From NCBI RefSeq assembly GCF_000009965.1, contig NC_006624.1, positions 1,500,001 to 1,532,000 of the forward strand: a stretch of DNA of 32,000 bases, written 5' to 3'. Origin of the DNA: Thermococcus kodakarensis KOD1. GTDB lineage: Archaea > Methanobacteriota_B > Thermococci > Thermococcales > Thermococcaceae. Below, one piece after another: positions 1-22,649 of the stretch (the first letter of the stretch is position 1; each line of letters starts with the position of its first letter). A model generated the notes under the pieces. The model was not told where the DNA came from. It did no database searches and worked only from the letters and a program-made list of their open reading frames with translations. A program made the position numbers and the translations under genes.

Positions 1-654
1 AACGGTGTCGCTCACGTGGAGGTAGCTCTTCCTCTGAGTTCCATCTCCAAGGATTTCCAGCTCGTTCGGGTTCTTCCGCAGTTTGTTGATGAAGTCGTAT
101 ATAACGCCGTGGTTCGAGCGCTTGCCGATGATGTTCGCCAGGCGGAAGCTCAAGGCCTTAAAGCCGAATATGTGGGCGTAGCCACTTATTATAGCCTCAG
201 CCGCGAGCTTTGCACCACCGTAGACACTTATCGGCTTAAGAGGGCCGTAGCTCTCAGGAGTTGGAATGACTTCAGCATCGCCGTAGACCGTTGAGGAGCT
301 CGTGAAGACGAGGTATTCAACGTCGGAATTCCTCATAGCCTCCAAGAGGTTGTAGGTTATCGTGACGTTGCTTTCGTAGAGCGTTTCAGGGCTCTGGGCG
401 CTGATTCTAACTTCAGGGTTAGCCGCGAGGTGGAAGACAACATCAACGCCTTCAATGGCCTTTTTTACGGTCTCGAGGTCAACCATGTCACCTTTTATGA
501 ACTCGAAGCGCTCGTTATCGAGCCAGTGCTTTACGTTGTCCAAGCTCCCGGCGCTCAGGTTGTCCAGAACTCTGACCTCATAGCCACTCTCCATCAGCCC
601 GTCAACGAGGTGGGAACCGATAAAGCCAGCACCGCCCGTAACTAGGACTTTCAT
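1..654 (-). CDS. NAD-dependent epimerase/dehydratase (extended SDR, UDP-glucose 4-epimerase-like). N-terminal 218 codons only; the C-terminus lies beyond the window start.
   Basis: Absent from the ORF track because it is open at the window edge. The reverse complement from ATG at 654 reads MKVLVTGGAGFIGSHLVDGLMESGYEVRVLDNL. It has the Rossmann motif TGGAGFIG, then TSSSTVYG and YGGAK (S/YxxxK catalytic set). The frame is unbroken to position 1. Confidence 0.85.
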   Translation of the reverse strand, partial: MKVLVTGGAGFIGSHLVDGLMESGYEVRVLDNLSAGSLDNVKHWLDNERFEFIKGDMVDLETVKKAIEGVDVVFHLAANPEVRISAQSPETLYESNVTITYNLLEAMRNSDVEYLVFTSSSTVYGDAEVIPTPESYGPLKPISVYGGAKLAAEAIISGYAHIFGFKALSFRLANIIGKRSNHGVIYDFINKLRKNPNELEILGDGTQRKSYLHVSDTV

Positions 655-737
655 GTGCACCATCACCCATGTAGTTATCGAGGTCACGTTATTAAACTTT
701 GGGAAAAGCTTTTTTACTCTAACGTTTAAGTTAAACC

Positions 738-1145
738 ATGATGAAAATCTATGACATTCCCCCACAGGGAAGGGAGAAAATAAAAGTGAAAATTCAAGAA
801 GCCCTCATGAGAAGAGAGGAAGTTATATTTGCTTATCTCCATGGTTCTTTCATCGAAGATAGGCCGTTCAGAGACATTGATGTAGCCGTTTACGTGAAGG
901 AGAAGCTAGATATATTCTATGAAATGACGCTGGAGGATGAACTTACTGAACTAACGGGGTTTCCCGTTGACGTCCGGGTTCTGAACGAGGCCCCTATTAC
1001 TTTCAGGTTTAAGGTCATAGGCGGAGAACTACTGTTCTCGAAGGATGAAAAAGCAAGGTGCAGGTTCGAGGAAGAGACCATGGCAGAGTACCACGATTAC
1101 TCCTACTACCTCGAACTCTACGGGAGGGAGGCCCTTGGAATATGA
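738..1145 (+). CDS. MNT-type nucleotidyltransferase (pol-beta superfamily), antitoxin partner of HepT
   Basis: 135 aa ORF with the NTase signature LHGSF..(x10)..DIDVAV (GS...DxD). It lies immediately upstream of, and overlaps, a DUF86/HEPN gene. Confidence 0.8.
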   Translation: MMKIYDIPPQGREKIKVKIQEALMRREEVIFAYLHGSFIEDRPFRDIDVAVYVKEKLDIFYEMTLEDELTELTGFPVDVRVLNEAPITFRFKVIGGELLFSKDEKARCRFEEETMAEYHDYSYYLELYGREALGI

Positions 1146-1566
1146 TAGGGACAGAGTAACGAGGCTGATGGGAGAAGCCAAGAATGCCCTTTTCAACATC
1201 CATGAACTTGCAGAGCTTGATGAAGAAGAGTTTCTAAGGAACAAGCATTACATATCTAGCGCAAAGTACAATCTTCTGGTTGCAATTGAGGCATGCATAG
1301 ACATTGCGTATCACCTGATATCAAAAAACAAACTGAGACTACCGAAAGACTACTCGGACGCGTTTAAGGTTCTCCAGGAAAACAATGTTATAAGCAATGA
1401 ACTGGCACGCCGCCTTATCTTAATGGCTCGTTTTAGAAACAGACTTGTGCATATATACTGGGACATTGATGACAGGATGATATACAGAATCATAACCGAA
1501 AACATAACTGATATAGAGAAGTTCTTAGAGCACATCCGTAAAATCCTCGGAGGGGATAACAAATGA
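1135..1566 (+). CDS. HepT (DUF86, HEPN-domain) toxin RNase
   Basis: HEPN Rx4-6H motif in ARFRNRLVHIYWD; size is about 132-143 aa. The start is ambiguous: TTG at 1135 (preceded by GGGAGG, 11-nt overlap with MNT) or ATG at 1168. The track start at 1045 would overlap MNT by 101 nt and encodes a low-complexity basic leader, so it is unlikely. Confidence 0.7.
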   Translation: MEYDRDRVTRLMGEAKNALFNIHELAELDEEEFLRNKHYISSAKYNLLVAIEACIDIAYHLISKNKLRLPKDYSDAFKVLQENNVISNELARRLILMARFRNRLVHIYWDIDDRMIYRIITENITDIEKFLEHIRKILGGDNK

Positions 1567-2558
1567 AAGCCGTCATAATGGCCGGTGGCTACGCCACCAG
1601 GCTCTGGCCAATCACAAAAGATGTCCCCAAGGCCCTGCTGCCGGTGGGGGACAGGACGATACTTGACCACATATTGGAGAAGGTCGCAGAAACCGGCCTT
1701 GAAACATATATCTCCACCAACAGGTTCTTCGAGAGCAGATTCAGGCCCTTTGCCGAAAAATGGGGTGTCAAACTCATAGTTGAGGACACACTCCACGAGG
1801 AAGAGAAGCTCGGAACGATAGGCGCGCTGAAGAAGATAATCGAAGAAATAGGCCTTGACGATTATTTGATCATCGCTGGGGACAACCTCTTCTCCTTCTC
1901 GCTCCAGGACTTCCTCAAGCGATACGATGAAAAGCCCCTGATAGCGGTCTATGACGTTGGTAACCCAGAGCTCGCCAAGAGGTACGGCGTTGTGCTCCTA
2001 GAGGGGGACAGGGTTGTTGACTTCGAGGAGAAGCCGGCTGTACCTAAGTCCACGCTGATAAGCACCGGCGTCTACGCCCTCCCCAGGGATGTTATGGCTC
2101 TCATTGATGAATACCTTGCAAACGGCCACAGAGACGCACCGGGCTACTTCCTCAGCTGGCTCCTGAAGAAGGGAATCGAGATAAGGGCCTACCGCTTCTC
2201 AGAGTTTTGGTACGACATTGGTTCAGCAGACAGTTATCTTGAAGCCCTCAAGACTCTACTCAAAGAGAGCCACATCGAGGAGATCCAGATAAGCCCCTAC
2301 TCTAAGATAATCCCACCTGTGGTCATAAAGAGGGGGACGAAGATACTGGGCCGTTCCATAATCGGGCCCTACGCGTACATTGGGGAGGACTGCGTCATAG
2401 AGAACTCGGACGTAAGCGATTCAATAGTTTTTAGGGGCACTATACTCAAGAACGCGACGATATGGCGCTCAATAATAGACGAAAAGTGCGAGATAAGGAA
2501 CCTCGAGCTTAAGAAGAGCTTGGTCGGAGGACATGCGAAGATACAGAGGGGGGATTAG
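1563..2558 (+). CDS. Sugar-1-phosphate nucleotidyltransferase (NDP-sugar pyrophosphorylase) with a C-terminal left-handed beta-helix domain
   Basis: N-terminus MKAVIMAGGYATRLWPITKDVPKALLPV (GxGxR...K signature). The C-terminal part is rich in hexapeptide-like repeats. Its ATG overlaps the HepT stop (ATGA). Confidence 0.85.
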   Translation: MKAVIMAGGYATRLWPITKDVPKALLPVGDRTILDHILEKVAETGLETYISTNRFFESRFRPFAEKWGVKLIVEDTLHEEEKLGTIGALKKIIEEIGLDDYLIIAGDNLFSFSLQDFLKRYDEKPLIAVYDVGNPELAKRYGVVLLEGDRVVDFEEKPAVPKSTLISTGVYALPRDVMALIDEYLANGHRDAPGYFLSWLLKKGIEIRAYRFSEFWYDIGSADSYLEALKTLLKESHIEEIQISPYSKIIPPVVIKRGTKILGRSIIGPYAYIGEDCVIENSDVSDSIVFRGTILKNATIWRSIIDEKCEIRNLELKKSLVGGHAKIQRGD

Positions 2559-2592
2559 GTTTTTAATTTCCTTTCCCTACTGAAGGGTCGCC

Positions 2593-3840
2593 ATGACCGA
2601 AAGCCTTAAGCTGAGACTCATTAAAAATGCTGGCTGGCTCTTCGGGGCCGAGGTCATTTCGAAACTCCTGGCCTATGGGGTAATAGTCATCCTGAGCAGA
2701 ACCCTCGGCCCGGAGGGACTTGGCCAGTACTCGTTCATCTTCTACTATGTTGGACTTCTGGGGATATTCTCTGATCTCGGAGTTGGCTACTACTTCATGC
2801 GTGAGGTTGCGAGGGATAGAAGTAAGGCTGAAGAGCTTCTTCCCGATGTGCTTGGGCTTAAGATTGCACTAGCGCTGATCAATTTTGGGATAATTGTTGC
2901 CCTAACCCTCCAGCTCCCAAAGCCGGAATGGATGAAGGTTTTGATTGTACTTGCTGGAGCTGAGGCAGTGCTAGGATGGATAGCGTATGTATTTGTGAAC
3001 ATGATGTATGCCCATGAAGTTACTAAATATGAAGCTATTGCAAGAACTATTGAGAGAATCTGGGCGTTTTTTATAGGAGGAACCGTTCTCTATGTTTGCA
3101 GATCTCTCTCACCATTTATAATCACACTTCTCATTGGATACGTCCTAAGGGAACTTTTGAGGATAAAATGGGGTAAAAGATTCGTTAGAGAAATCCGCAT
3201 CCATTTTGAGCCCCAAAAATGGCTCTCCCTTCTCAAGAAGTCCTACCCCTTCTGGTTCATCGGATTATTTACGCTGATCTACTACCGCACTGACATGGTG
3301 ATGCTAAGCCTAATGAGGGGAGACTACGAGACCGGAATATACCGGGCAGCTTATACTCTAATCGAAGTTTCCCTATTTGTTCCGAATATTGTTGTCCCGA
3401 CGACTATGCCCTCAATGGCAAGGCTGTGGCAAGAGGATCGAAAAACCCTTGAGATCTTACTGAAGAAGAGCTCTCGGATTTTGAGCGGTTTGGGCGTTCT
3501 GGGAACGATAGGGTACTACGTTTTTGCAAGGTGGGGAACTATACTTGTGTTCGGAGAAGGTTTCCTGGCAAGCGTTCCTATGCTCAGAATCTTGGCCTTT
3601 GCGGTTCCATTTATGTTCCTAAACTCACTATTTGGGAGCTTTTTGAATGCAACGGGAAGGGAACTAACGTTTACCAAGATAACGGGATTCACTGCGTTGC
3701 TGAACGTTGTGCTAAACTACTTCCTGATACTGAATTATGGAGCAAGAGGAGCCGCGATGGCGACGGTGGTTAGTCAGGGGATAGCAAGTGTTTTAAGTTT
3801 TAGAGTAGGAATAAAAAACGGGAAATATAACGGTGCCTAA
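2593..3840 (+). CDS. MOP-superfamily oligosaccharide/polysaccharide flippase (Wzx-like)
   Basis: 415 aa and highly hydrophobic with many predicted TM segments. The N-terminal pattern LIKNAGWLFGAEVISKLLAYGVIVILSRTLGPEGLGQY is typical of polysaccharide biosynthesis/flippase proteins. Confidence 0.8.
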   Translation: MTESLKLRLIKNAGWLFGAEVISKLLAYGVIVILSRTLGPEGLGQYSFIFYYVGLLGIFSDLGVGYYFMREVARDRSKAEELLPDVLGLKIALALINFGIIVALTLQLPKPEWMKVLIVLAGAEAVLGWIAYVFVNMMYAHEVTKYEAIARTIERIWAFFIGGTVLYVCRSLSPFIITLLIGYVLRELLRIKWGKRFVREIRIHFEPQKWLSLLKKSYPFWFIGLFTLIYYRTDMVMLSLMRGDYETGIYRAAYTLIEVSLFVPNIVVPTTMPSMARLWQEDRKTLEILLKKSSRILSGLGVLGTIGYYVFARWGTILVFGEGFLASVPMLRILAFAVPFMFLNSLFGSFLNATGRELTFTKITGFTALLNVVLNYFLILNYGARGAAMATVVSQGIASVLSFRVGIKNGKYNGA

Positions 3841-4128
3841 GGTCTCAGTTATTATTCAGACCATCAAAGAAAGAGAAAACTGTTGAAGCATGTTGTTTAG
3901 TGTTTCGAATTAAACTTTTGTCAGGATTCTGAGATCATATGATGGCCAATAATAGCCCCATAGACTACCTCTCGATGACAACAGAGTAAGAATCTTGAAC
4001 TTCTTGGCTCTAACGTATTACAGGCTAGAAACTATAAGATTAAAAATACGCATGAACAATACATTGCGTTTCTTGATGAATAGCCATTTACAAAGCTATT
4101 GAGAAGTCAGACTGTTCTACTTGTTTAA
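3833..4128 (+). pseudogene. Decayed N-terminal relic of a GT2 glycosyltransferase
   Basis: From GTG 3833 the frame reads VPKVSVIIQTIKEREN then stop. Intact GT2s here read KVSIIVPVYN, RVSVVIPTYG and LVSVIIPTYN. A second frame reads FELNFCQDSEII (3904-3939), resembling the WELILVDDNSDD segment of the intact GT2 at 5266-6237, though more weakly than the two flanking fragments. The same frame then gives GSNVLQARNYKIKNTHEQYIAFLDE and a stop (4006-4083), matching the ARNxGxxxAxGxYIAFLDxDD block. This frame has stops at 3898, 3940, 3961, 3976 and 4081, and there is one frameshift between the fragments. Confidence 0.55.
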
Positions 4129-4195
4129 ACCGCCCTTATGTTATTGACTGAATCCGCCATACGGATAATTTAAAAACAACAGGGCTCTAAGAGGC

Positions 4196-5269
4196 TTAGT
4201 CAATCCAACTGACCTTGCATGATTTGTCCAAAGTTTGTTTATTTTTCTCTGACTTGTAGGTTTCCAAAATTGTAGTAAGAGCTTTTTTGAGTATCTCGTC
4301 CCAGTCATACTTTTTAAGGATTAGTCTGGATATTTTCCTGTATCTTTTTTCGTAATAGGGGTAATTTTCCATAACATAGAGGAAGGTCTCATAGAGATCC
4401 CTTTTGTCACAACACCTGAATGGAATTGTATACCGCGAAATCTCTGTCTGGATGCTATCACTCACGATAGACGGCACTCCGAGGGCAAGAGCCTCCAATA
4501 AAACTAATGGAAAAACTTCATGACGAGACGGCAAAATCAATACCTTAGACTCTTTCATCATCCTCAGTACATCTTTACGTGGGGAAAATGCTTTGACTAC
4601 TATATTTCCCACAACAGTATATTCTTTGTCAGCTCCAACCATTAAACCCCTATAAGGTTTGTCTTTAAAAGTATCAATCACAAGCTGGGGATTTTTTTCT
4701 TCACTAAACCTCCCTACGTAGATAAAATCCCACCTACGCCGAAATTTCCTTTGGTATAACTTCTTGACATCATCATCAATACCATTTGAAATATGGCGTA
4801 TATTTGAATTTCTCCGTCCATAATACTGAAAACTGTTTTTATTGAGTAGCAGGATCAATGTATTGGGCATAGAAACATATAAATCACGAATCTTTTTGAG
4901 TGGATAGTTCAGCAACTTTCCTCTCCAGTTCAGATAAAATTTAAAGAACTTATCCCAATCTCTACCATCTATTATGACTTTTACAGGCTTCTTTACCGGT
5001 AAAAGGGATGTGTGTGCAAAAATTATATCAACATCTCTGTATTTTCTTAATGTAGCTAACTTCTGTGCAAGCTCATTTATACTGCCAAGACCATTTAGCA
5101 TTGGAAGTGTTATCATCTCATCACATGACACGCAGGGGACATCCCCCACATATGAACAGATGAGATACAGATCATATTTTTCCTTAAGCTCAGTAAGAAC
5201 CTCTGCAACTTTTAGCATGACTCTTTCGGCACCACCCACTGTGCCGCATCCGTGGACGTATATTTTCAT
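4196..5269 (-). CDS. GT4-family (GT-B fold) glycosyltransferase
   Basis: 357 aa with the C-terminal EX7E motif PSRHEVFPLVLLEALALGVP and an N-terminal GGAERV motif. It is AT-rich relative to its neighbours. Confidence 0.85.
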   Translation of the reverse strand: MKIYVHGCGTVGGAERVMLKVAEVLTELKEKYDLYLICSYVGDVPCVSCDEMITLPMLNGLGSINELAQKLATLRKYRDVDIIFAHTSLLPVKKPVKVIIDGRDWDKFFKFYLNWRGKLLNYPLKKIRDLYVSMPNTLILLLNKNSFQYYGRRNSNIRHISNGIDDDVKKLYQRKFRRRWDFIYVGRFSEEKNPQLVIDTFKDKPYRGLMVGADKEYTVVGNIVVKAFSPRKDVLRMMKESKVLILPSRHEVFPLVLLEALALGVPSIVSDSIQTEISRYTIPFRCCDKRDLYETFLYVMENYPYYEKRYRKISRLILKKYDWDEILKKALTTILETYKSEKNKQTLDKSCKVSWID

Positions 5270-6237
5270 TTTTTACTCACCATTTTTCTCAAAAGTGGCC
5301 TAATAGGAACGAACAAATCAACAATCCATATCAACGTCAAATATGACGAATGAGACCTAACTGGCCTGTAAGTTTTGATGTAGTCAAAGTATTTCCAAAA
5401 CAGCTTACGTGCTTCCTTCCTACCGTAAGTATCCGACACGATTGTGATGTAGGTCATAAAGCTAAAAGGTCTCAACTGCCTTGCAACAACGTCGCAGACC
5501 TCACGATGTTTGCCTGACACTTCTTTGACTCTTAGACAGAGCTTATTGTAAGCTTCAAGCGTTCCCCTAATTTTCTCTTCTGGGGTTTTGCTTCTTCCTT
5601 GGACAGCCGAGCTTCTCCTTACAAGGTGGTAGAAGTCAGGTTTCGGAACAGAATACACCTTCTCAATCAATGACAGATACAAAGTGAAAAAGTATGCGTC
5701 CTCCGAGTAGCGAATGTTTTCTGGAAACCGCAAGCCGTAATCATTGATTATGTCTGCTCTCAAAAGAGAGCTACCAACACCAAACCTCGCTTTGAGCATA
5801 AGGACATCCTTCCAAGACAGTTCGCCGTGTTTTGAAGCTCTAACGTGGATTTTCTTTCCAGTTTCCTCGAAAACATCGTAGTATTCAGTTGAGACGCCAC
5901 CAAAACCCTTTATATGGCTCACCGTATCTTCAAGAAAACTCTCGCTCCACCAATCGTCGCTGTCTATGAAAGCTATGTATCTACCAGAAGCAACCTCAAT
6001 ACCCATATTTCTACCGACAGAAACGCCACTCCTTCGCTTTGGCGTCCTTAGAACTTCAACCCTATCAGGATGTTTATCTTTAAAGTCAAGCAAAAGCTCG
6101 TAAGTGCCATCATCTGAGTTGTCGTCAACGAGTATAAGCTCCCAGTCCTCGTAGGTCTGCTTCTCTATCGAACTAAGAAGCCTTGGAACGTAGTCTCGCG
6201 TGTTGTAGACGGGAACGATGATTGATACCTTAGCCAT
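5266..6237 (-). CDS. GT2-family glycosyltransferase
   Basis: N-terminus MAKVSIIVPVYNTRDYVPRLLSSIEKQTYEDWELILVDDNSDDGT, followed by GRNMGIEVASGRYIAFIDSDDWW (DxD). It overlaps the downstream GT4 by 4 nt. Confidence 0.9.
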   Translation of the reverse strand: MAKVSIIVPVYNTRDYVPRLLSSIEKQTYEDWELILVDDNSDDGTYELLLDFKDKHPDRVEVLRTPKRRSGVSVGRNMGIEVASGRYIAFIDSDDWWSESFLEDTVSHIKGFGGVSTEYYDVFEETGKKIHVRASKHGELSWKDVLMLKARFGVGSSLLRADIINDYGLRFPENIRYSEDAYFFTLYLSLIEKVYSVPKPDFYHLVRRSSAVQGRSKTPEEKIRGTLEAYNKLCLRVKEVSGKHREVCDVVARQLRPFSFMTYITIVSDTYGRKEARKLFWKYFDYIKTYRPVRSHSSYLTLIWIVDLFVPIRPLLRKMVSKK

Positions 6238-6264
6238 GCATTTCCCAAATATAGCTGGGGGACA

Positions 6265-7494
6265 ATGGTTAAAAGTTTTAGGGCATTTATCCTGGCGAGG
6301 GTGAGAATGGACAGAGTAACCAAACAGCTGATAGCCTCCAGACTCCTTTCACTGGCAAACGTTATTCCAAAAGACGAAAACAAACTCCTCTTCTACTCAA
6401 CTCCCGACGTATCTGACAATGCCCTAGCACTCTTTAAGTACGTTTCCAGAAAGACCAATGATTACGAGCTGGTCTGGCTCCTGAATAATCCAAGCTCTCC
6501 ATCCGTTAAGGTCCTCAAGGGAAGGTATTCTGAAGCGAAAACTGTGCCTCTCTACTCAATTAAGGGCCTAAAAGAGCTTTTGAGAGCCAAATTCATCATC
6601 ACTACTGATGTTCTACCCGTGACGCCCCATTTAGGTCAAAGGGTAATCCAGCTCTGGCACGGACTTCCGGGCAAGAAGACCGGCTACGAACATCCCCTAG
6701 GCATCAGGGATCTCTACCTCTACATGGACAGGTGGACGACTGACTTCGTAACAACCTCGGAACTTGTCGTCGGTTCGTTCGTGAGGCAGTTCATGATAAA
6801 CCCCCGGAAGTTCAGAATCCTCGGACAGCCCAGAAACGACGGCCTCTTTGACCACATGAAGGACTCAAAAGACACGCTCTCGTCAATACTGGGAATTGAT
6901 GTGGAGGCCTATGATGGCGTTGTTCTCTACGCACCAACTTACAGGTATACCAGCTACCTGAAAGACTTTGAGGCCAGCGTCAGGGCTGTTGAGAGCCTCT
7001 TTCGGAGAGACTTCATCGAGTTCATAAGAGAGGAGAACATCCTGCTCGTCATAAAGCCCCACAAACTAGTGGCTGAGGCGGTAAAATCCAAAGTAAAAGT
7101 AAGTTCGAACGTTGTTCTCCTCACAGACGAACCGCTTCAGTCACACCTTCTCAACATAAACGACATCATGGGGGCGTTTGATATCCTGATAACCGATTAC
7201 TCAAGCATCTTTGAGGACTACATACTCCTGAACAGGCCAATTGTATTCTACTTGCCAGATAGGGAAGCATTGGAGCAAAAAAGCGGCTTTCTCTTGCCGT
7301 ATGAATTTTTTGCTCCTGGGAAGAAGCCCGAAACTGTCGAAGACCTCAAAAGGAGCCTGAGAGAGTACATAGACGATCCCCAGATAGATGCAGAGTGGAG
7401 GGAAACTATCAAAAACCTCCTTTACGAAGTTGGGCAGGACAATAAATCTTCGGAGAGGGTTTACAAACACATAATAAAGGGGGAATTTGAATGA
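6265..7494 (+). CDS. CDP-glycerol/CDP-ribitol polyol-phosphotransferase family protein (TagF/TagB/TarL-like, Glyphos_transf)
   Basis: Family-typical blocks are present: QLWHGLPGKKTG, YAPTYR, IKPHK and ITDYSSIFEDYILLNRPIVFYLPD. An alternative in-frame ATG at 6307 follows GAGGGTGAG and may be the true start. Confidence 0.8.
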   Translation: MVKSFRAFILARVRMDRVTKQLIASRLLSLANVIPKDENKLLFYSTPDVSDNALALFKYVSRKTNDYELVWLLNNPSSPSVKVLKGRYSEAKTVPLYSIKGLKELLRAKFIITTDVLPVTPHLGQRVIQLWHGLPGKKTGYEHPLGIRDLYLYMDRWTTDFVTTSELVVGSFVRQFMINPRKFRILGQPRNDGLFDHMKDSKDTLSSILGIDVEAYDGVVLYAPTYRYTSYLKDFEASVRAVESLFRRDFIEFIREENILLVIKPHKLVAEAVKSKVKVSSNVVLLTDEPLQSHLLNINDIMGAFDILITDYSSIFEDYILLNRPIVFYLPDREALEQKSGFLLPYEFFAPGKKPETVEDLKRSLREYIDDPQIDAEWRETIKNLLYEVGQDNKSSERVYKHIIKGEFE

Positions 7495-8180
7495 CAACCC
7501 TTATCCTTCTCGCGGGCGGAATCGGAAAACGGGCAAACCTCGGCCTCCCCAAACAGTACTACAGGATCGAGGAGAAAATGATAATAGAGTACACGTTGGA
7601 AAACGTGTCAAAAGTCGGAGGCATAGACAGGCTAATCCTCGTCTCCAATCCTCAATTCATGGACACGGCCCTGGAACTGGCGGAAAGCTTTCCAAAGATA
7701 GAAACGGTCACGATAGGGGGGAAGACTAGGAACGAATCAATGTACAACGGATTTAAGGAAGTTCCACCGGGAGAGACCAAGGTTATAGTCCACGATGCCG
7801 TAAGACCATTCACACCCAGGTGGGTTTTTGAGAAAATAATAGACCTCCTGGACGAGATGGATGTGGTAACAACCGTGAACCCAATAACCGGGAACCTAAT
7901 AGAGCTGGATAATGGAAAGGTAAAGAGAATCCACGACCGTTCGAGATACGCCATGGGAGAGGCTCCCACAGGATACCGCTACGATGCCCTGAAGAAGACT
8001 CTTGAGACGGCACTATCACGGGGAATCCTGAACGAGATTCCCCACGACATCCTTCTCGCGATGGAGGCGGGATTCAACGTCCACGTGCTACATTGTAACT
8101 GCTTCAACCTGAAGATTACCTTCAGGGAAGACGTTGAGATCGCGAGGACCCTGATAAAAGTGCTGGAGGAGCAGCGTTGA
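7491..8180 (+). CDS. IspD/TarI-family cytidylyltransferase (probable CDP-polyol synthase)
   Basis: N-terminus MTTLILLAGGIGKRANLGLPKQYYRI matches the IspD/TarI signature AGGxGxR...PKQ. 229 aa. The start overlaps the stop of the TagF-like gene by 4 nt. Confidence 0.8.
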   Translation: MTTLILLAGGIGKRANLGLPKQYYRIEEKMIIEYTLENVSKVGGIDRLILVSNPQFMDTALELAESFPKIETVTIGGKTRNESMYNGFKEVPPGETKVIVHDAVRPFTPRWVFEKIIDLLDEMDVVTTVNPITGNLIELDNGKVKRIHDRSRYAMGEAPTGYRYDALKKTLETALSRGILNEIPHDILLAMEAGFNVHVLHCNCFNLKITFREDVEIARTLIKVLEEQR

Positions 8181-9061
8181 GGCCCAGGGTCTCGGTTGTC
8201 ATCCCAACTTACGGCAGGGATAGGCTCCTGAGAAGGGCCATAGAGAGCGTCCTAAACCAGACCTTCGACGATTTTGAGATCCTGATCATAGACGGTGCCC
8301 GGAGCGAATCAACGAAGGAGCTTGTGCGTTCCTACGGCGACGGAAGGCTCAGGTACATCCCCCAGCGTGGGAAGGGCATAGCGAACGCCCGCAACATCGG
8401 TGTCTTAAAGGCCCGTGGAGATTTCATTGCCTTCCTCGACGATGACGACAGATGGAGAAAGGACAAGCTAGAACTGCAGCTTGAGGCCTTCGGGGAGCTT
8501 CCCTCGAATTACGGGCTTGTCTATACCGCCTTCACGTATTACTACTTAGAACGGGACAAAGTTCTGGGGATAAAGCATCCGAAAGCGAGCGGAGACGTTT
8601 ATGGACATCTCCTAAAGGACAACATAACCGGAACATCCACGATAATGGTTAAACGGGAATGCTTCAAGAAGGCGGGCCTATTCAGGGAGGACTTCGTGAC
8701 CTGCGAGGACTGGGACATGTGGCTGAGGATGGCCAAGGTTTGCCGCTTTGGGGCGATAGATGAGCCCCTGGTTGACTACTCCATCCACTCCGGCCAGTTC
8801 TCATTTTCCAAGTATCTCTCGGGGCGGTACAGGATGATCGATGCCCACGGAGATATAAGACATGATCCCAGGATTCTGAGCTACCATCTTCTCCAAATTG
8901 GGGTTTTGAAACTCTTCAGTGGGGATAGGAGCGGTGCGAGGGAAGTACTGGAGGCGTTCAGGTTGAACCCAGTGATGCGTGGCAACATTCGGGATATCTT
9001 ATCCTCATTCCTGGATGTGAGAACCAGGATATACATCCTCAAGTTTTTGGGGAGGCTTTAG
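8177..9061 (+). CDS. GT2-family glycosyltransferase
   Basis: RVSVVIPTYGRDRLLRRAIESVLNQTFDDFEILIIDG and NARNIGVLKARGDFIAFLDDDDRW. The only in-frame start is TTG at 8177, which overlaps the upstream TGA (TTGA). Confidence 0.85.
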   Translation: MRPRVSVVIPTYGRDRLLRRAIESVLNQTFDDFEILIIDGARSESTKELVRSYGDGRLRYIPQRGKGIANARNIGVLKARGDFIAFLDDDDRWRKDKLELQLEAFGELPSNYGLVYTAFTYYYLERDKVLGIKHPKASGDVYGHLLKDNITGTSTIMVKRECFKKAGLFREDFVTCEDWDMWLRMAKVCRFGAIDEPLVDYSIHSGQFSFSKYLSGRYRMIDAHGDIRHDPRILSYHLLQIGVLKLFSGDRSGAREVLEAFRLNPVMRGNIRDILSSFLDVRTRIYILKFLGRL

Positions 9062-9094
9062 CGAGGAAATTTTAAATTTGAAAAAGAACAAAAA
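9062..9094. terminator. Short A/T-rich convergent intergenic spacer, a probable bidirectional oligo-T terminator
   Basis: 33 nt lie between the convergent stops. There are T4/T3 runs on the plus strand (9070-9079) and two T5 runs on the minus strand (A5 at 9081-9085 and 9090-9094). Archaeal termination uses oligo-T tracts. Confidence 0.4.
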
Positions 9095-11395
9095 TCAGTC
9101 TCTTCTAAACACACCCCTGTCCAAGATTTTCTCGCCCTCGGCATAGGCGTACCTTATCACCGTTCCGTTGACCTCCGCCGGCAGCTCAAACTCTTTCAGC
9201 CCTTCGACGTTGTACCACTTCTCAAAGACCTTCGTGCCGTTGTCGAGGAAGCCCCAGATTCCGAGTCTCGTCCCGGTTGCGTTCTCGAACTGAAGGAGTG
9301 TCTCGCCACCCCTTCTCTCAACGACAACGTTCGGGTGCTTAAGCCTCAGGATTTTTATGATCCCTCCATCAGAGTAAACCAGCTCATAGGGCCCATCTGG
9401 CTTTATGAAGAGCCTCGCCAGGTTAGTGTTGAAGGCCTCCCCGTTCATGAGGATCGCGTAGTTGTAGTTGAGGTTGATGTAAAGGTAAGCCCCAGATTCG
9501 GACGGCGTTATGTTCGGTTTTATAATCTTATCTCCGTACTCGACGTAGACCTCCCGCGGTCCAAAGACATGGCCGCTGACGCTTATCTTCACGTCCCATT
9601 TTTCGCCAGGTCTTGCAACGACCGTGTAGCCCGAGTTCCTGAACACCAGCGCCCCCGCTGAAGAAACCATGGGCAGGACAACGAGGCCGTAGTTTTCACT
9701 CACGTTGCACCTCGAGCACATCATCGCGGTGTCGACTATCGTTCCAAACTTCAGAAAGTCGTAATAGGAGACGATAACGTAGTCGACGCCAAGGCCCATC
9801 GCCCAGTTCTCATCGCGCTTGCCGAGGTAATACAGGGCCACACCTGTATTGGGGGCTAGCTCAGCGACTGGTGCGCGTCTGGCATAATAGGTAACCCACG
9901 TTCCGTAGTCCCACCAGGCAAGAACGATATCGTTTTCGTTCGAGTTCTCGCCGAGCCACGTTAACGCCCTCTCCCAGTGCTCGTTCATAAACGGCTCCAC
10001 TGCCGCGACCTTCTCGAAACCGATTGCAGTGTCAACGGCGGGGACGAAGAGGAGAAGCCCAAGTGCAACGGCGAGTCCTTTTCTCCCCTCAAAGCGCGGC
10101 AGAATTTCATAAAGCTCCAACAACCCGATTCCTGCCATTAAGGCAACTCCCATAGAACCTATGAATAGAAACCTCGTCCAGGTCTTGATCATGTAGAGGC
10201 TGGGAAGGACAAGCCCGAGGAGCATGAAGTCCTGAACTCTGACTTTCCCGGGCCTGAACCGGAGGAAAAAGAGGGGGGCGAGGAAAAGACCAACGGCAAA
10301 CGCGCTCCAGAGGTCGTGGAAGGTCGACGGGCGGGTCTCGGATATTGGCCATTCATTGAATATTCCAAAGCCAGTTGAGAGGTCTTTCAGCCCTTCAAAC
10401 CTCGCGAAGAGGAGGTAAACGGCGAGAGCACCGAACACCAGGACTGTCAGGGTCCTCAGCCTTTTGTCCCTGATGAACTTCGAGAGCGCGAGGAGGGCCA
10501 GGAGTCCAGCCAGGGCGAGGGGGACCAGGTACTTAAGATGGAAGAGCAGGTAGGCGTCCCTTACCGTGGTGAGTTCCAGGGACAGCTTTTCGGCGACCGT
10601 TTTACTCAACCACCTGTCGTACCCGAGCATGCCATAGCCAACCCTGGCCCCAAGGTAGTTCGCAATAAGGGCGCCAATCGCCGTGGAGACTGTTAGGAGT
10701 ATCCCGTCGAGGATGTACCTGTCCCTACCGAGGAGAAAATCCCCGACTCCCAGAAAGACCGCGCTGGCCAGGAGAAACACGAAAATCGGGTAGTAAGCCT
10801 GCCAGAAAGCCGCCGCAAGGCCGCTTGCGAGGGCTGGCACAGCGTAGAAGGCAAGGCTTTTATGTCCAAGTCTTTCCCTCGTTGAAAACGCGTAGGCGAT
10901 TCCGAGAAGCGAAATAGAATACCAGAAGAGCATGTAGTTATCGCCGCGGTAGTAGCCGGCCATTGAGCGAAAGACGTGGCCGAAGCTAACCGCTAGAAAG
11001 AGCGAAGCAAAAAAGGCCCGCTTTTCATCGTAGAGTTTCAGCAGGGCCCAATAGAACACGGCTATCGTCAAGATCCCAAAGATGACGGGCGTTATCCTAA
11101 AAGCATTGTAGAGGGAAAGGCCAAAGATCTTCAGGAGTTTGTAAACATAAGCGGGCGTTGCCCACAGGCCGAGGGGGTGAAATGTCCTCATCTGAAAGCC
11201 CCAAGGTCCGTTTGCGATTGTGAAAAAATTGAGCCACTTGCCCGCTTTTAGGGCCTCCTCTATGTAAGCGAGGTGGAAATAAGGGTCGTAGCCTAAGAGA
11301 TATCTGAACCTTATGGGGATTAACCTGAGAATCAAGGCAACGGCCGTTATCATGGGGAGTGCGATTTTTGGCCTGAAGATTTTATTGAAATCCAT
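9095..11395 (-). CDS. aglB: Archaeal oligosaccharyltransferase AglB (STT3 family), short-type 766 aa
   Basis: WWDYG catalytic motif at aa 494-498 (nt 9902-9916, reverse complement tggtgggactacgga). DK motif DFLKFGTI (DxxKxxxI) about 50 aa downstream. N-terminal loop GYDPYFH (acidic motif) and WPISET (TIXE/SVSE-like). The N-terminal roughly 460 aa is multi-TM. Confidence 0.9.
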   Translation of the reverse strand: MDFNKIFRPKIALPMITAVALILRLIPIRFRYLLGYDPYFHLAYIEEALKAGKWLNFFTIANGPWGFQMRTFHPLGLWATPAYVYKLLKIFGLSLYNAFRITPVIFGILTIAVFYWALLKLYDEKRAFFASLFLAVSFGHVFRSMAGYYRGDNYMLFWYSISLLGIAYAFSTRERLGHKSLAFYAVPALASGLAAAFWQAYYPIFVFLLASAVFLGVGDFLLGRDRYILDGILLTVSTAIGALIANYLGARVGYGMLGYDRWLSKTVAEKLSLELTTVRDAYLLFHLKYLVPLALAGLLALLALSKFIRDKRLRTLTVLVFGALAVYLLFARFEGLKDLSTGFGIFNEWPISETRPSTFHDLWSAFAVGLFLAPLFFLRFRPGKVRVQDFMLLGLVLPSLYMIKTWTRFLFIGSMGVALMAGIGLLELYEILPRFEGRKGLAVALGLLLFVPAVDTAIGFEKVAAVEPFMNEHWERALTWLGENSNENDIVLAWWDYGTWVTYYARRAPVAELAPNTGVALYYLGKRDENWAMGLGVDYVIVSYYDFLKFGTIVDTAMMCSRCNVSENYGLVVLPMVSSAGALVFRNSGYTVVARPGEKWDVKISVSGHVFGPREVYVEYGDKIIKPNITPSESGAYLYINLNYNYAILMNGEAFNTNLARLFIKPDGPYELVYSDGGIIKILRLKHPNVVVERRGGETLLQFENATGTRLGIWGFLDNGTKVFEKWYNVEGLKEFELPAEVNGTVIRYAYAEGEKILDRGVFRRD

Positions 11396-11547
11396 TGTTT
11401 CTTACCTCCCGTTGTATCAACTCGTTATCATGTTTAAACCTTTTTCCATCACATTCCCACCGAGCGCATAGACTTAACTACTATGGATTCGGACGCTACA
11501 AGATAAGGTAAGCAGTATGCATTTAAGCTAATAACATAGTAGTAATA

Positions 11548-11555
11548 TTTATAAA
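11548..11555 (+). promoter_or_regulatory. Candidate archaeal TATA box for the 11593-21411 operon
   Basis: TTTATAAA sits in the divergent aglB/flippase intergenic region, about 40 nt upstream of ATG 11593, with GGTGAG between the two. Motif only; there is no transcript evidence. Confidence 0.3.
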
Positions 11556-11592
11556 AACTCTCGCTCCACAGTGGCACGGTGAGATTAATAGC

Positions 11593-12882
11593 ATGGCCAG
11601 CAGGCCCGTTCAAATCTTTCACATCTGGAAACAAGACTTCTATCGGGACGCCCTTATCATGATGGTCGCGGTCACACTCTCCAACTTCTTTAATTACCTC
11701 TACCAGCTCCTAATGGGAAGAATGCTCTCCCCCCAGGAATACGGTGAACTTTTCAGCCTGTTGTCCCTGTTCTACATATTCTCCGTGTTTTCAACAACCA
11801 TAAACACTTCCATAACCAAATTTACGGCAGTTTACTGGGCAAGAGAGGAATACGGAAAGATAAAATCGATCATAATTAAGGGGACGAAAGTCCTGGGACT
11901 CTTCGGTGTCCTGTTGTTCGGGTTGATAGCCCTAATCTCCCCCATGTTTTCCAGTTTTCTCCAGATTGAGGACAACACACTTTTGCTGGTTTTGTTTGCA
12001 TCGCTTCCCCTCTCAATGGTTCTCCCCATATACCAGGGAGCCTTAAGGGGTATGCAGAGGTTCTCGGCGTTGGGGCTGAGCACGTCTTCCTGGGCGTTCC
12101 TTAAGGTGCTCTTCGGTGTTTCCCTGGTTGCACTCGGCTACGGAGTTTTTGGAGGTCTACTAGGGATATTTTTGGCACACGTGGGGGCGTTTTTCTTAAC
12201 ACTAATGTTTCTAAAGGATCTGTTCCAGTATAGGGAAACAGGGGACCTTGAAATTCGAGACATCCTCTCATACAGCGGTCTCGCGTTTCTCGCAGTTCTT
12301 GCGTACACAACAATGTGGAATATCGACGTTATTTTGGTCAAGCACTACTTGTCCCCCTTGGAGGCGGGGCAGTATTCCGCCATCTCTGCGCTGGGAAAGA
12401 TTGTCCTTTTTGCACCCGGAGCGATTGGAATGGTCATATTCCCCAAGGCCGCCGAAAAGCACGAGAAGGGAGAGGAACACTTCCAAGTGCTGCTGAGGGG
12501 AATGGGCCTGACACTCCTGATTTCAGGGGGAATAGTTTTGGCCTACGCCCTGTTTCCGGAGTTCATTATCAAAATCATTTATGGGGCAAAATATCTCAAT
12601 GTCGCCCCGTATCTGTGGAGATACGGGCTGGCGATGATGTTCTTTTCGTTGGCGAGCGTAATGATTAATTATTCCCTGTCAATAGACAAGACAGATATTT
12701 TTCTTTACCTACTTGGACTGCTGACAACTGAGATAGTTATGCTATCCATTGGAAGTAAGAACATTTCTACGATTATAGACATGCTAATCGGCGTAAGTGC
12801 CTCAATACCCATTGTACTGTTTATATCTATTTGGAGGCAAAATAATGCCCAAGATATCAATACTGATGCCCGCTTACAATGA
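11593..12882 (+). CDS. Second MOP-superfamily flippase (Wzx-like polysaccharide biosynthesis protein)
   Basis: 429 aa multi-TM protein. The N-terminal pattern ALIMMVAVTLSNFFNYLYQLLMGRMLSPQEYGELF parallels the flippase at 2593. Confidence 0.75.
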   Translation: MASRPVQIFHIWKQDFYRDALIMMVAVTLSNFFNYLYQLLMGRMLSPQEYGELFSLLSLFYIFSVFSTTINTSITKFTAVYWAREEYGKIKSIIIKGTKVLGLFGVLLFGLIALISPMFSSFLQIEDNTLLLVLFASLPLSMVLPIYQGALRGMQRFSALGLSTSSWAFLKVLFGVSLVALGYGVFGGLLGIFLAHVGAFFLTLMFLKDLFQYRETGDLEIRDILSYSGLAFLAVLAYTTMWNIDVILVKHYLSPLEAGQYSAISALGKIVLFAPGAIGMVIFPKAAEKHEKGEEHFQVLLRGMGLTLLISGGIVLAYALFPEFIIKIIYGAKYLNVAPYLWRYGLAMMFFSLASVMINYSLSIDKTDIFLYLLGLLTTEIVMLSIGSKNISTIIDMLIGVSASIPIVLFISIWRQNNAQDINTDARLQ

Positions 12883-13570
12883 GGGGGAAAACCTTAGAAA
12901 GGCAGTTATAGAAACCATGAAAGAGTTAAAAGGGCTAGACTACGAGATAATCATAATCAACGATGGATCCAGGGACAATACCCCCGAAGTCGCAAGGGAA
13001 CTCTGCGAGTCATTTAGGAACGTCCAACTAGTGAGCTATTCAAAGAACCGGGGAAAAGGGTACGCTCTAAAAAAGGGCTTCGAAAAGAGCAACGGTGAGA
13101 TAATCGTGTTCTTCGATGCAGATTTGGATATTCCTCCTTCCCAAATAAAGAGGTTCATAAAGTTTCTTCAAAATGGATACGACGTTGTTATAGGTTCAAA
13201 ATACCTTCCGGGAGCTAGGGTGAGGTACTCCGAGAAAAGAAGGCTATTCAGCATCTGGTACAGAACGCTCGTTAAATTACTGCTTAAGCTTGACGTCAGC
13301 GATACTCAGGTCGGACTCAAGGTGTTTAAGAGAGAAGTCCTGGAAAAGGCATTTTCCAAAGTCTTAGTCAAGAAGTACGCCTTTGATGTTGAACTTTTAA
13401 CCGTGATAAATATGTATGGATACAAGATTTATGAACTGCCGATTAAGATTGAACATAAGAGTTTTAACTCCTCCATAAACTATAGGGCAATAGCAAGAAT
13501 GTTTTTGGACACTGCAGCAATAGTTTACAGAAAAAACATCTTGCATTACTACAATGGTGATAAAAGATGA
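12845..13570 (+). CDS. GT2 glycosyltransferase, DPM1/GtrB-like (candidate dolichyl-phosphate hexose synthase), soluble type
   Basis: MPKISILMPAYNEGENL...IIIINDGSRDNT...NRGKGYALKKGFEKSNGEIIVFFDADLD...VVIGSK. ATG 12845 lies 7 nt after GGAGG. The track start at GTG 12797 would add 16 codons inside the flippase. Confidence 0.85.
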   Translation: MPKISILMPAYNEGENLRKAVIETMKELKGLDYEIIIINDGSRDNTPEVARELCESFRNVQLVSYSKNRGKGYALKKGFEKSNGEIIVFFDADLDIPPSQIKRFIKFLQNGYDVVIGSKYLPGARVRYSEKRRLFSIWYRTLVKLLLKLDVSDTQVGLKVFKREVLEKAFSKVLVKKYAFDVELLTVINMYGYKIYELPIKIEHKSFNSSINYRAIARMFLDTAAIVYRKNILHYYNGDKR

Positions 13571-14646
13571 GGATACTATGGCTCAACTGGAAGGATATAA
13601 GACACCCCGAAGCAGGGGGAGCTGAGGTTTATACTCATGAGATTGCAAAAAGATTAGTTGAAAAAGGATATGAAGTTACCCTCTTCACTTCGTATTTTAA
13701 TGGAGCTGAAAAGGAGGACGAAATTGATGGTGTCAAAATAGTCAGAAGCGGAAAAATAGTTGGTCTCTTTGATACGGTGTATTCCCACGCAAAGAGGTTC
13801 TACAGGGATAACAAAAACGATTTTGATGTAGTAATAGATGAGATAAACACCCGGCCATTTCTAACTCCAAAATACGTTGATAAGCCAATAATAGCGCTGA
13901 TACACCAATTGGCAGTTGAGTTTTGGGATTATAAGACACCGTTTCCGATCAATACCCTTGGGAAACACATCCTAGAACCCTACTGGTTAAAGCATTACGT
14001 CAATGTTAAAACAATAACTGTCTCCGAATCCACGAGGAACGACCTAGAAAAGCTCGGATTTAAAGATATTGAGATAGTTTACAATGGATTGGATAGAAAT
14101 ATTTTAGAGAAGGTCCCCGAAAAGGAAGACGAGTTTACCGCTTTATTCGTTGGCAGGTTGACCCCAACTAAAAAGCCCGAAGACGCCGTGATAGCCTTTA
14201 AAATGCTCAATAAGGGAAAAATGTGGATTGTTGGCAGAGGCGAACTTATGGAAAAGCTTAAAAAAAGGCATAATAATGGAAACATCGAATTTAGGGGGTT
14301 CATCCCTGAGAAAGAAAAAATTGAACTCATGAAAAAAGCCCACGTATTGTTGGTTCCAGGAATAAGAGAGGGCTGGGGGAGGGTCGTGATCGAGGCCAAT
14401 GCCCTGGGAACCCCAGCAATCGGTTATAACGTTCCTGGACTCAGGGACTCAATAAAGCATAGATACAACGGCTTACTGTGTGATCCAAACCCCAAGGCAA
14501 TGAGCGAGGCCCTTAGAGTATTGCACGAAGATGAAGAACTCAAAAGGAGATTAAGTGAAAACGCTTTAAAGTGGGCCAAAAGGTTCAGCTGGGATGAGAG
14601 TGCGGAGAAGTTTGAGAGGGTATTAAACTCCTCAGTCGGTGAGTGA
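13567..14646 (+). CDS. GT4-family glycosyltransferase
   Basis: EX7E motif PGIREGWGRVVIEANALGTP and N-terminal EAGGAEVY. ATGA overlap with the upstream gene. Confidence 0.85.
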   Translation: MRILWLNWKDIRHPEAGGAEVYTHEIAKRLVEKGYEVTLFTSYFNGAEKEDEIDGVKIVRSGKIVGLFDTVYSHAKRFYRDNKNDFDVVIDEINTRPFLTPKYVDKPIIALIHQLAVEFWDYKTPFPINTLGKHILEPYWLKHYVNVKTITVSESTRNDLEKLGFKDIEIVYNGLDRNILEKVPEKEDEFTALFVGRLTPTKKPEDAVIAFKMLNKGKMWIVGRGELMEKLKKRHNNGNIEFRGFIPEKEKIELMKKAHVLLVPGIREGWGRVVIEANALGTPAIGYNVPGLRDSIKHRYNGLLCDPNPKAMSEALRVLHEDEELKRRLSENALKWAKRFSWDESAEKFERVLNSSVGE

Positions 14647-14647
14647 G

Positions 14648-15466
14648 ATGGAGAATAAAGAGATGCCGCTGGTCTCTGTGATTATTCCCACGTACAACTC
14701 AGAAAAAACTATTGGAAAGTGCTTAGAATCAATCAAAAACCAGACCTACAAAAACATAGAGGTTATCGTCGTTGACAATTTTTCCCAAGATAAAACGGTT
14801 GAGATATGTAAAAAATACAATGCAAAAGTTATCCAAATCAAGAGCGAGAGGACAAAAGCGAAGAATATCGGGTTAAAAAAGGCAAATGGGAAATACGTCC
14901 TTTTTATTGATTCTGACATGGGATTAACTCCAAAGGTTATAGAGGAGTGTGTTATATTAATTGAATCAGATCCCAAAATCGGGGGGATAATAATCCCAGA
15001 GCGCTCTGTCGGTAATAGTTATTGGGTGAAGGTTAGAGATTTCGAGAGAAGTTTCTATACTGGAACTGAAATAGAATCCGCACGATTTTTCAGAAGGGAT
15101 TTAGCTCTACAAGTAGGGGGATTTGATGAAGACGTTGTATTTTTTGAGGAGTCTACACTCCCTCAGAAGATTGAGAAACTTGGATTCAATGTCAAAGCCA
15201 GAATAGAATCTCATATTATTCACCATGAAGAAAACTTTTCACTAATAAAATGGCTCAAAAAGAAGTATTATTATGGACAGACAGCCAGAAGATATAAATC
15301 GAAATATAGGGAGTATGGAAACAAGCAGATAAGCTTGTTTTACAGGTTTGGGTTGTTTTTTAAAAGGAAGAGATTTTGGAGCAAACCTCATTTGGCTGCC
15401 GGAGTAATTGTTTTAAAGGGATTGGAGTATTTAGCCGCAAGTGTTGGATATTTAAAGTCATCTTAA
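14648..15466 (+). CDS. GT2-family glycosyltransferase
   Basis: PLVSVIIPTYNSEKTIGKCLESIKNQTYKNIEVIVVDNFSQD and KNIGLKKANGKYVLFIDSDM. ATG 14648 sits 1 nt after the upstream stop and is preceded by GGTGAG. The track start is GTG 14639. Confidence 0.85.
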   Translation: MENKEMPLVSVIIPTYNSEKTIGKCLESIKNQTYKNIEVIVVDNFSQDKTVEICKKYNAKVIQIKSERTKAKNIGLKKANGKYVLFIDSDMGLTPKVIEECVILIESDPKIGGIIIPERSVGNSYWVKVRDFERSFYTGTEIESARFFRRDLALQVGGFDEDVVFFEESTLPQKIEKLGFNVKARIESHIIHHEENFSLIKWLKKKYYYGQTARRYKSKYREYGNKQISLFYRFGLFFKRKRFWSKPHLAAGVIVLKGLEYLAASVGYLKSS

Positions 15467-15486
15467 ACTTACGAAGGTGGAGAAAA

Positions 15487-16653: not shown

Positions 16654-16655
16654 TT

Positions 16656-17666: not shown

Positions 17667-17682
17667 TAAACAGGGGGTAAAT

Positions 17683-22611: not shown

Positions 22612-22649
22612 CCGATAGATTTTTATACCTGAAGATTAAACGTCATAAT

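Follow-up and report, generated by a model that had tools for sequence, protein, structure and literature searches.

The stretch of DNA analysed here, called the window below, comprises 32,000 nucleotides from Thermococcus kodakarensis KOD1 (contig NC_006624.1, positions 1,500,001 to 1,532,000 of the forward strand), and the system under study is a compact gene module within it that encodes a predicted TagF-like CDP-polyol phosphotransferase, a cytidylyltransferase of the IspD/TarI fold and two family 2 glycosyltransferases (GT2). The strongest candidates for the genes that place phosphate-linked myo-inositol in the N-glycan of this archaeon, where that unit has been reported, are the three coupled forward-strand genes of the module. 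The window as a whole is a glycosylation island, with about 10 GT2/GT4 genes, two Wzx-type flippase genes and one sugar-1-phosphate nucleotidyltransferase gene, and the features on which the analysis turns are the following, in positions of the window.

6307..7494 (reading frame open from 6265), + strand: predicted TagF-like CDP-polyol phosphotransferase, 395 amino acids, GenBank BAD85904, PF04464
7491..8180, + strand: IspD/TarI-fold cytidylyltransferase, 229 amino acids, PF01128, proposed maker of the CDP-polyol
8177..9061, + strand: GT2 glycosyltransferase, 294 amino acids, BAD85906, PF00535
5266..6237, - strand: divergent GT2 glycosyltransferase, 323 amino acids, PF00535 (E = 9.6e-35), fourth conserved member of the module
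4196..5269, - strand: GT4 glycosyltransferase, 357 amino acids, PF00534 (E = 3.3e-17), candidate further extension enzyme
2593..3840, + strand: candidate Wzx/MOP-type flippase for the lipid-linked glycan, 415 amino acids, PF01943 (E = 2.7e-29)
9095..11395, - strand: short AglB/STT3 paralog, 766 amino acids, BAD85907, converging on the operon
6238..6306, no strand: divergent intergenic region of 69 bp between the GT2 and TagF-like genes, AT-rich, with TATA-like stretches and a GGTGA ribosome-binding site, presumably holding the promoters
9062..9094, no strand: convergent spacer of 33 bp, AT-rich, with runs of T and A, probable termination region of both units

The three open reading frames (ORFs) of the forward strand (6265-7494, 7491-8180 and 8177-9061) exist as first described in an earlier note on this DNA, which had read them as overlapping genes of one tight operon, and two 4-base overlaps bear this out. 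The TagF-like and cytidylyltransferase genes share an ATGA overlap (7491-7494) with GGGGG just upstream, and the cytidylyltransferase and GT2 genes share a TTGA overlap (8177-8180) with a GGAGG ribosome-binding site just upstream; because each overlap follows a purine-rich ribosome-binding site, translational coupling of the three genes appears likely from the sequence. The TagF-like gene probably begins at ATG 6307 and not at 6265; GGTGA lies upstream of this start, the RefSeq product has 395 amino acids, and the orthologs have 392-400. The GC content of 6265-9061 is 0.497 compared with 0.475 for window positions 1-13000, in keeping with its earlier description as host-like, and membrane segments were predicted in none of the four enzymes (TagF-like, IspD-like and the two GT2). 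Search with profile hidden Markov models upheld the three family assignments of the earlier note (PF04464, E = 2.4e-60; PF01128, E = 2e-34; GT2 PF00535 for the third ORF, E = 4.2e-30), and every motif it had quoted was found. By accession arithmetic, BAD85904, BAD85906 and BAD85907 would be TK1715, TK1717 and TK1718, and the cytidylyltransferase is presumed to be TK1716; full-text search for TK1714-TK1719 returned only unrelated matches, and the genes are not named in the literature searched.

The TagF-like protein matches the Glyphos_transf family over positions 7-366 of the 367 of the profile, with 204.9 bits (cut-off 22.1), and contains the motifs QLWHG, YAPTYR, KPH and TDYSS. Counted along the printed structure-sequence alignment, with PDB titles used for the names of variants, His118 (395-residue numbering) falls opposite H444 of Staphylococcus epidermidis TagF and opposite the Asn that the H300N variant of TarL carries, and His252 aligns with residue 584 of the TagF chain. 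The catalytic histidines, whose loss the earlier note had named as fatal to its assignment, are thus both present and are invariant in 60 homologs. The AlphaFold2 model (mean predicted local distance difference test, pLDDT, 92.4) was matched by Foldseek to CDP-ribitol-bound TarL (E = 2e-20), to TagF (TM-score 0.75-0.78), to Cps3D and to the 8a0c capsule multienzyme, with UDP-GlcNAc 2-epimerases as the next fold class, nine orders of magnitude weaker, and the protein is accordingly modelled with the two-domain TagF/TarL fold. By sequence the closest solved relatives are the capsule polymerase Cps3D (best, E = 6.3e-15), TarL and TagF. The scores fall below the NCBIfam equivalog cut-offs for TarF (77.9 against 550 bits), TarL (76.8 against 1000) and TarB (33 against 500), and because even the TarF model, which is aligned end to end by a protein of TarF-like size, yields 78 bits against 550, the protein is classed by sequence as a member of the TagF family, yet as none of the named teichoic acid enzymes. 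An N-terminal amphipathic membrane anchor was considered as well; the hydrophobic moments were unremarkable, and no such claim is made. As a side observation, the title of PDB entry 3L7M gives a TagF 'H548A' variant, whereas the alignment count places Arg at residue 548 and the conserved His at 584; the title probably has transposed digits.

The cytidylyltransferase, 100% identical to the database protein 'cytidylyltransferase [T. kodakarensis KOD1]', matches the IspD profile with 119.7 bits (cut-off 27) over positions 3-219 of 221 and carries the AGGIGKR...PKQ motif. Its AlphaFold2 model, of the kind that the earlier note had called for, has a pLDDT of 93.7 and the fold of Bacillus subtilis IspD (TM-score 0.87) and Staphylococcus aureus TarI (0.86), and R14, K21, D102, R105, T133, R150 and K208 match R20, K27, D106, R109, T140, R157 and K213 of Escherichia coli IspD, with which that enzyme binds CTP and the phosphate of its substrate. 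It stays under the cut-offs both for IspD (TIGR00453, 129.9 against 181.3 bits) and for ribitol-5-phosphate cytidylyltransferase (NF001183, 105.7 against 166 bits). A GE(A/S)PTGY segment replaces QTPQxF in all 13 archaeal members of the clade, QTPQ being kept in 16 of 18 bacterial relatives, and when a profile of the clade was searched against 1.84 billion representatives, the variant was found in 2 of the 148 best matches examined and (Q)TPQ in 121. The replaced segment contains E. coli Thr165, which we take to be a substrate-contact residue. The protein belongs to a narrow, divergent branch of the IspD/TarI family, and its divergence is compatible with a substrate that is neither methylerythritol phosphate nor ribitol phosphate, without identifying one. 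NF041135, the model of the inositol-1-phosphate cytidylyltransferase (IPCT)/DIPPS protein with an N-terminal IPCT half, was not among its NCBIfam matches at E-values up to 0.001, which makes it less probable that the protein is an IPCT and leaves the proposal that it makes CDP-inositol unaffected. No TagF-like gene lies within 10 kb of the low-GC relatives of the cytidylyltransferase (L066-L068, 42% identity), whose neighbours are uninformative.

The module is conserved as a block, with the divergent GT2 gene on one side and the TagF-like, IspD-like and GT2 genes on the other, in Thermococcus stetteri, in a Pyrococcus horikoshii-type genome (L045) and in seven metagenomic Thermococcales contigs, with identities to T. 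kodakarensis of 65-82% for the TagF-like protein, 72-85% for the IspD-like protein and 71-83% for the downstream GT2. It occurs in 9 Thermococcales contigs and is uninterrupted in 8 of them, seven being contigs other than that of T. kodakarensis; in the remaining one, L045, an FkbM-type methyltransferase gene is inserted between the TagF-like and IspD-like genes. An ortholog of the downstream GT2 lies immediately 3' of the IspD-like gene at every Thermococcales locus examined. Orthologs of the divergent GT2 (36-65%) stand head-to-head with the TagF-like gene in L003/L058, L004, L045, L056 (T. stetteri), L059, L061, L062 and L063, and in L050 a 53% relative of it adjoins a TagF-like gene of 42% identity. 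The conserved unit thus exceeds three genes and includes the divergent GT2 at 5266-6237. Further out, orthologs of the first Wzx gene (74-79%) occur near the module in L045, L056, L059, L061 and L050, while the GT4 gene, which overlaps the divergent GT2 gene by 4 bases in T. kodakarensis, has orthologs (44%) adjoining the divergent-type GT2 in L059 and L063 and is not conserved in L056. Since the KOD1 genome and several named orthologs were missing from the results of the contig scan, it is unusable for showing absence in any species.

The genes that follow the block are housekeeping genes in two loci and sulfate-activation genes in T. stetteri. In the latter (L056, 10540-15498) the module is followed by genes for an ATP-sulfurylase, an APS-kinase, a DHH/DHHA1 protein, a PF01663 phosphodiesterase-type protein and a TauE exporter, a set that suggests sulfated glycans in that species. 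The P. horikoshii-type locus (L045, 7277-12258) holds two FkbM-family methyltransferase genes, one of them the insert mentioned above, and genes for two proteins without family matches; the methyltransferase genes hint at a methylated variant of the product.

Beyond the close orthologs, the TagF-like protein groups in a rough neighbour-joining tree with three hyperthermophile homologs of 40-44% identity, and a methanogen-type clade (35-38% identity) is separate from this group. The TagF-like genes of the methanogen-type clade adjoin genes for GpsA-type glycerol-3-phosphate dehydrogenases, and its members are presumably glycerol-phosphate enzymes. In the near clade, a Desulfurococcales TagF-like gene stands head-to-head with the gene for a 262-residue cytidylyltransferase, which in NCBIfam matches only the IPCT portion of the model for the Thermococcales IPCT/DIPPS protein (E = 8.4e-24) and in the PDB only three inositol-1-phosphate cytidylyltransferases. 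This neighbour had at first been taken as strong evidence for CDP-inositol and was downgraded on two grounds, namely that relatives of IPCT act on several substrates, such as phosphocholine, phosphoglutamine and phosphoglycerate (PMC12275187), and that weakly IPCT-like transferases also adjoin glycerol-3-phosphate dehydrogenase genes in methanogen-type loci; its bearing on CDP-inositol is suggestive only. As an observation in its own right, archaeal TagF-like genes of 35-37% identity in L055 (8187-9885) and L054 (8472-9391) lie beside genes for a bacterial-type NAD(P)H glycerol-3-phosphate dehydrogenase and a small nucleotidyltransferase, which implies that archaea with lipids built on the opposite glycerol phosphate have a glycan modification based on sn-glycerol-3-phosphate.

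The AglB paralog that converges on the operon has its stop 33 bases from the end of the GT2 gene, on the opposite strand, and has at least nine membrane segments and the motifs PISE (residue 350), WWDYG (494) and DFLK (546), the last of DK type. It matches TIGR04154 (E = 2.8e-17), with the Pfam STT3 models just below their cut-offs, has orthologs across Thermococcales and is 53% identical to a 743-residue STT3 protein of Pyrococcus furiosus, the gene for which lies in a non-glycosylation context. The earlier note had leaned on the position beside the oligosaccharyltransferase as an argument for a surface-glycan role, and this argument proved weak: the neighbour is a short paralog, and an AglB gene adjoins the module in none of the eight other Thermococcales loci examined, the adjacency being seen in T. 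kodakarensis only. The adjacency was therefore rejected as a conserved feature that could serve as evidence for an N-glycan role, and the link between paralog and module is positional only.

Family membership, fold, catalytic residues and gene coupling give good support to the general mechanism, in which a CDP-polyol is synthesized and its polyol phosphate is then passed on to a lipid-linked glycan. A role of the IspD homolog in isoprenoid synthesis had been set aside in the earlier note on the grounds of the archaeal mevalonate route, which is established knowledge and stands. The absence of a TarJ-like reductase or TagD-type enzyme that it had remarked on also holds, with neither found among the window ORFs scanned, and a wider comparison found no GpsA-like dehydrogenase, TarJ-like reductase or TagD-type enzyme in the window or in eight orthologous loci; because no such reductase, dehydrogenase or TagD-type enzyme accompanies the module, the polyol phosphate must come from general metabolism. 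A 2024 review (PMC11407970), with reference to Hirao et al. 2023, states that myo-inositol phosphate is part of the T. kodakarensis N-glycan, which is described there as the first N-glycan to contain inositol. The literature searched, which yielded only this review on the subject, assigns no gene to this inositol unit. In the 2023 study the inositol is reportedly itself glycosylated and joined by a phosphodiester to a disaccharide, hence an internal bridge, and is said to bear three sugars. On either side of the TagF-like and IspD-like pair there are three genes for glycosyltransferases in all, two of GT2 and one of GT4, and the correspondence with the three sugars is only suggestive. On the basis of the published chemistry and of parsimony, we hold with moderate confidence that the module installs the myo-inositol phosphate of the N-glycan. 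The phosphodiester-linked polyol on a surface glycan that the earlier note had proposed is retained as the likely product, and the independent N-glycan chemistry fits it, with the difference that the inositol is said to be an internal bridge and not a terminal decoration; likewise its CDP-activated polyol stands, while glycerol and ribitol, which it had put forward, have not been reported in that N-glycan, and myo-inositol is the likelier choice.

Four steps would make up the pathway. The IspD-fold enzyme would convert CTP and a polyol phosphate to CDP-polyol and pyrophosphate, the proposed substrate being myo-inositol 1-phosphate from inositol-phosphate synthase and the product CDP-inositol. 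The soluble TagF-like enzyme, with His118 as the base, would then use the CDP-polyol as donor and attach its polyol phosphate to a hydroxyl group of a short glycan carried on dolichol phosphate, with release of CMP, a chemistry taken from the family, with the catalytic residues present in the sequence; this would resemble the way in which TagB/TarF place a single glycerol phosphate on the lipid-linked disaccharide in wall teichoic acid synthesis, and a TagF-type enzyme acting on CDP-inositol and a lipid-linked disaccharide would give the phosphodiester linkage that is reportedly present. A single polyol-phosphate unit, not a polymer, is probably added. The GT2 enzymes of 8177-9061 and 5266-6237, and possibly the GT4 of 4196-5269, would glycosylate the inositol, after which the Wzx-type flippase of 2593-3840 may move the finished lipid-linked glycan outward and AglB, either the short paralog next to the module or a long one encoded at another genomic site, would transfer it to Asn. 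Taken at the level of the enzymes, it is a tentative but credible proposal that the IspD-fold enzyme, whose pocket carries GE(A/S)PTGY, acts as a second and non-homologous CTP:myo-inositol-phosphate cytidylyltransferase and that the TagF-fold enzyme is the first CDP-inositol:glycan inositol-phosphotransferase.

Several points weigh against the assignment to the inositol of the N-glycan. The connection between these genes and the N-glycan is drawn from published chemistry and parsimony; the adjacency to AglB is not conserved in the other loci examined; and the Desulfurococcales neighbour is only suggestive because IPCT-like enzymes take varied substrates (PMC12275187). The window holds more glycosyltransferases than one glycan of hexasaccharide size needs, and a second glycan may therefore be made here. 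To our knowledge no IspD-fold enzyme takes inositol phosphate and no TagF-like enzyme uses CDP-inositol. Thermococcales already make CDP-inositol through the IPCT/DIPPS fusion of the di-myo-inositol-phosphate pathway, and a second cytidylyltransferase therefore needs a reason to exist, which is the main difficulty.

An alternative that we regard as rather unlikely, though worth serious attention, is that the module adds another polyol phosphate (glycerol, ribitol or another CDP-activated alcohol) to another glycoconjugate, such as an exopolysaccharide, an O-glycan or a glycolipid, in a manner unrelated to the N-glycan inositol, possibly as a synthase of alternating sugar and polyol phosphate like those of teichoic acids or capsules. 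It is favoured by the nearest solved relatives, which are CDP-glycerol and CDP-ribitol enzymes including Cps3D, by a cytidylyltransferase equally close to TarI and to IspD, by the GT2 genes on either side of the TagF-like gene, which recall the fused glycosyltransferase and TagF-like capsule enzymes, by an island with some ten glycosyltransferases and two Wzx-type genes, by the position of the module away from AglB in the loci of other species, and by the glycerol-3-phosphate dehydrogenase genes beside other archaeal TagF-like genes. On the other side, neither an enzyme forming a polyol phosphate nor one of TagD type was found in the window or in the eight orthologous loci, the TagF-like protein has the size and full-length match of a single-addition, TarF-type enzyme, unlike a long polymerase, and the cytidylyltransferase falls under the TarI cut-off and lacks QTPQ. 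In the review's account, moreover, inositol is the sole polyol phosphate reported for T. kodakarensis, with no polymer of glycerol phosphate or ribitol phosphate among what it reports (PMC11407970).

The two enzymes might also have separate roles, with the TagF-like enzyme installing the inositol phosphate of the N-glycan from CDP-inositol made by IPCT/DIPPS, and the IspD-fold enzyme activating another phosphate ester, for instance one that the coupled GT2 uses or that serves some minor modification. We consider this improbable. It is favoured by the CDP-inositol supply that Thermococcales already have, NF041135 being a model of the Thermococcales IPCT/DIPPS; by the Thermococcales-like locus L050, with a TagF-like gene of 42% identity, a Wzx gene and a divergent-type GT2 but no IspD-like gene within the 10 kb examined; and by the Desulfurococcales homolog paired with an IPCT-like and not an IspD-like enzyme. 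It sits poorly, however, with the TagF-like and IspD-like genes being adjacent or one gene apart in all nine close orthologous loci that extend past the gene, and with their overlap in T. kodakarensis, such tight coupling usually marking a donor-supply pair; nor does the review's account of the glycan report a second phosphodiester or CDP-derived group (PMC11407970).

A true IspD of the methylerythritol-phosphate pathway together with a true wall-teichoic-acid polymerase acquired from bacteria is suggested by the best Pfam/TIGRFAM names (IspD and CDP-glycerol glycerophosphotransferase) and was rejected as highly implausible, since the scores are below cut-off (under the IspD equivalog cut-off for the cytidylyltransferase; 78 bits or less against 500-1000 for TarF, TarL and TarB), QTPQ is missing, other methylerythritol-phosphate-pathway or Tag/Tar genes are missing from the window, archaea are established to use mevalonate routes and to lack peptidoglycan-anchored teichoic acid, the GC content is host-like, and the orthologs of 66-82% identity are confined to Thermococcales.

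When the proposed inositol-phosphate module is compared with known systems, the TagF-like protein has the fold and the two catalytic histidines in common with TagB/TarB, TarF and TagF/TarL, and the same chemistry is predicted, in which a CDP-polyol and a sugar hydroxyl of a lipid-linked short glycan give a phosphodiester and CMP; in addition, an IspD-fold cytidylyltransferase gene adjoins the transferase gene in TarI/TarL as it does here. From the wall teichoic acid system (TagO/TagA, TagD or TarIJ, TagGH) only the TagF-like and TarI-like parts occur in the window, which lacks TagD, TarJ and a TagGH-type ABC exporter and has Wzx-type flippases instead; the module is archaeal, its carrier would be dolichol phosphate where the bacterial carrier is undecaprenol, and its likely target and polyol are the N-glycan and myo-inositol. 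The capsule polymerases, represented by Cps3D of Actinobacillus pleuropneumoniae (PDB 8qoy) and 8a0c, are strong fold matches to the TagF-like protein and share the theme of a TagF-like domain working with glycosyltransferases on sugar-polyol-phosphate linkages, but they are fused multi-domain proteins of more than 1000 amino acids that make long chains, whereas the module consists of separate proteins of 395, 294 and 323 amino acids that show no sign of a polymerase architecture. IPCT (PDB 2xme, 4jd0 and 4mnd), which serves di-myo-inositol-phosphate synthesis, carries out the very reaction proposed for the cytidylyltransferase, the formation of CDP-inositol out of inositol 1-phosphate and CTP, whereas the cytidylyltransferase lies outside the IPCT family and has IspD and TarI as its fold matches. 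In humans, ISPD (CRPPA), fukutin and FKRP synthesize CDP-ribitol and insert ribitol phosphate into the O-mannosyl glycan of dystroglycan. Human ISPD (4cvh), a clear match in sequence and fold to the T. kodakarensis cytidylyltransferase, is thus an IspD homolog in an organism without the methylerythritol-phosphate pathway that serves an internal phosphodiester-linked polyol of a protein glycan, as proposed for the module, while fukutin and FKRP are not TagF-like; the human glycan is O-linked and the human polyol is ribitol.

Elsewhere in the window, a nucleotidyltransferase gene (Polbeta/MNT, 738-1145) and a HepT RNase gene (within 1045-1566) form a type VII toxin-antitoxin pair at 738-1566, situated between an SDR epimerase gene and the sugar-1-phosphate nucleotidyltransferase gene, with no such pair at the same spot in T. 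stetteri. Positions from about 13000 to 23000 have a GC content of 0.33-0.41, compared with about 0.47-0.50 on both sides, and contain GT2/GT4 genes and genes for unknown membrane proteins, with a gene content that differs between two samples sharing an identical TagF-like protein (L001 and L002); this region is probably a strain-variable, laterally acquired glycan cassette. The same low-GC stretch includes an ORF of 1242 amino acids (17683-21411) with about eight N-terminal membrane segments and without a Pfam match. Two ORFs in different frames, 24521-25180 (PMT_2 match) and 24886-25887, have 295 bases in common and membrane segments in both, and 24521-25887 may be one frameshifted gene for a GT-C-type membrane glycosyltransferase, or the product of a sequencing error.

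In an archaeon amenable to genetics, the module provides two specific candidate enzymes that are soluble and thermostable. If the polyol were glycerol or ribitol, a hyperthermophilic archaeon would be shown to make a teichoic-acid-like glycoconjugate not described until now. If the assignment to inositol is true, it would account for the assembly of the only N-glycan known to contain inositol, would carry the chemistry of teichoic acids over to protein N-glycosylation in archaea and to a donor that is a cyclitol, and would widen the substrate range of the TagF/TarL and IspD/TarI families, both of which are bacterial drug targets. It would further supply enzymes with which to produce inositol-phosphate-linked glycans, and would establish an archaeal parallel to the human ISPD ribitol-phosphate pathway, the loss of which causes muscular dystrophy.

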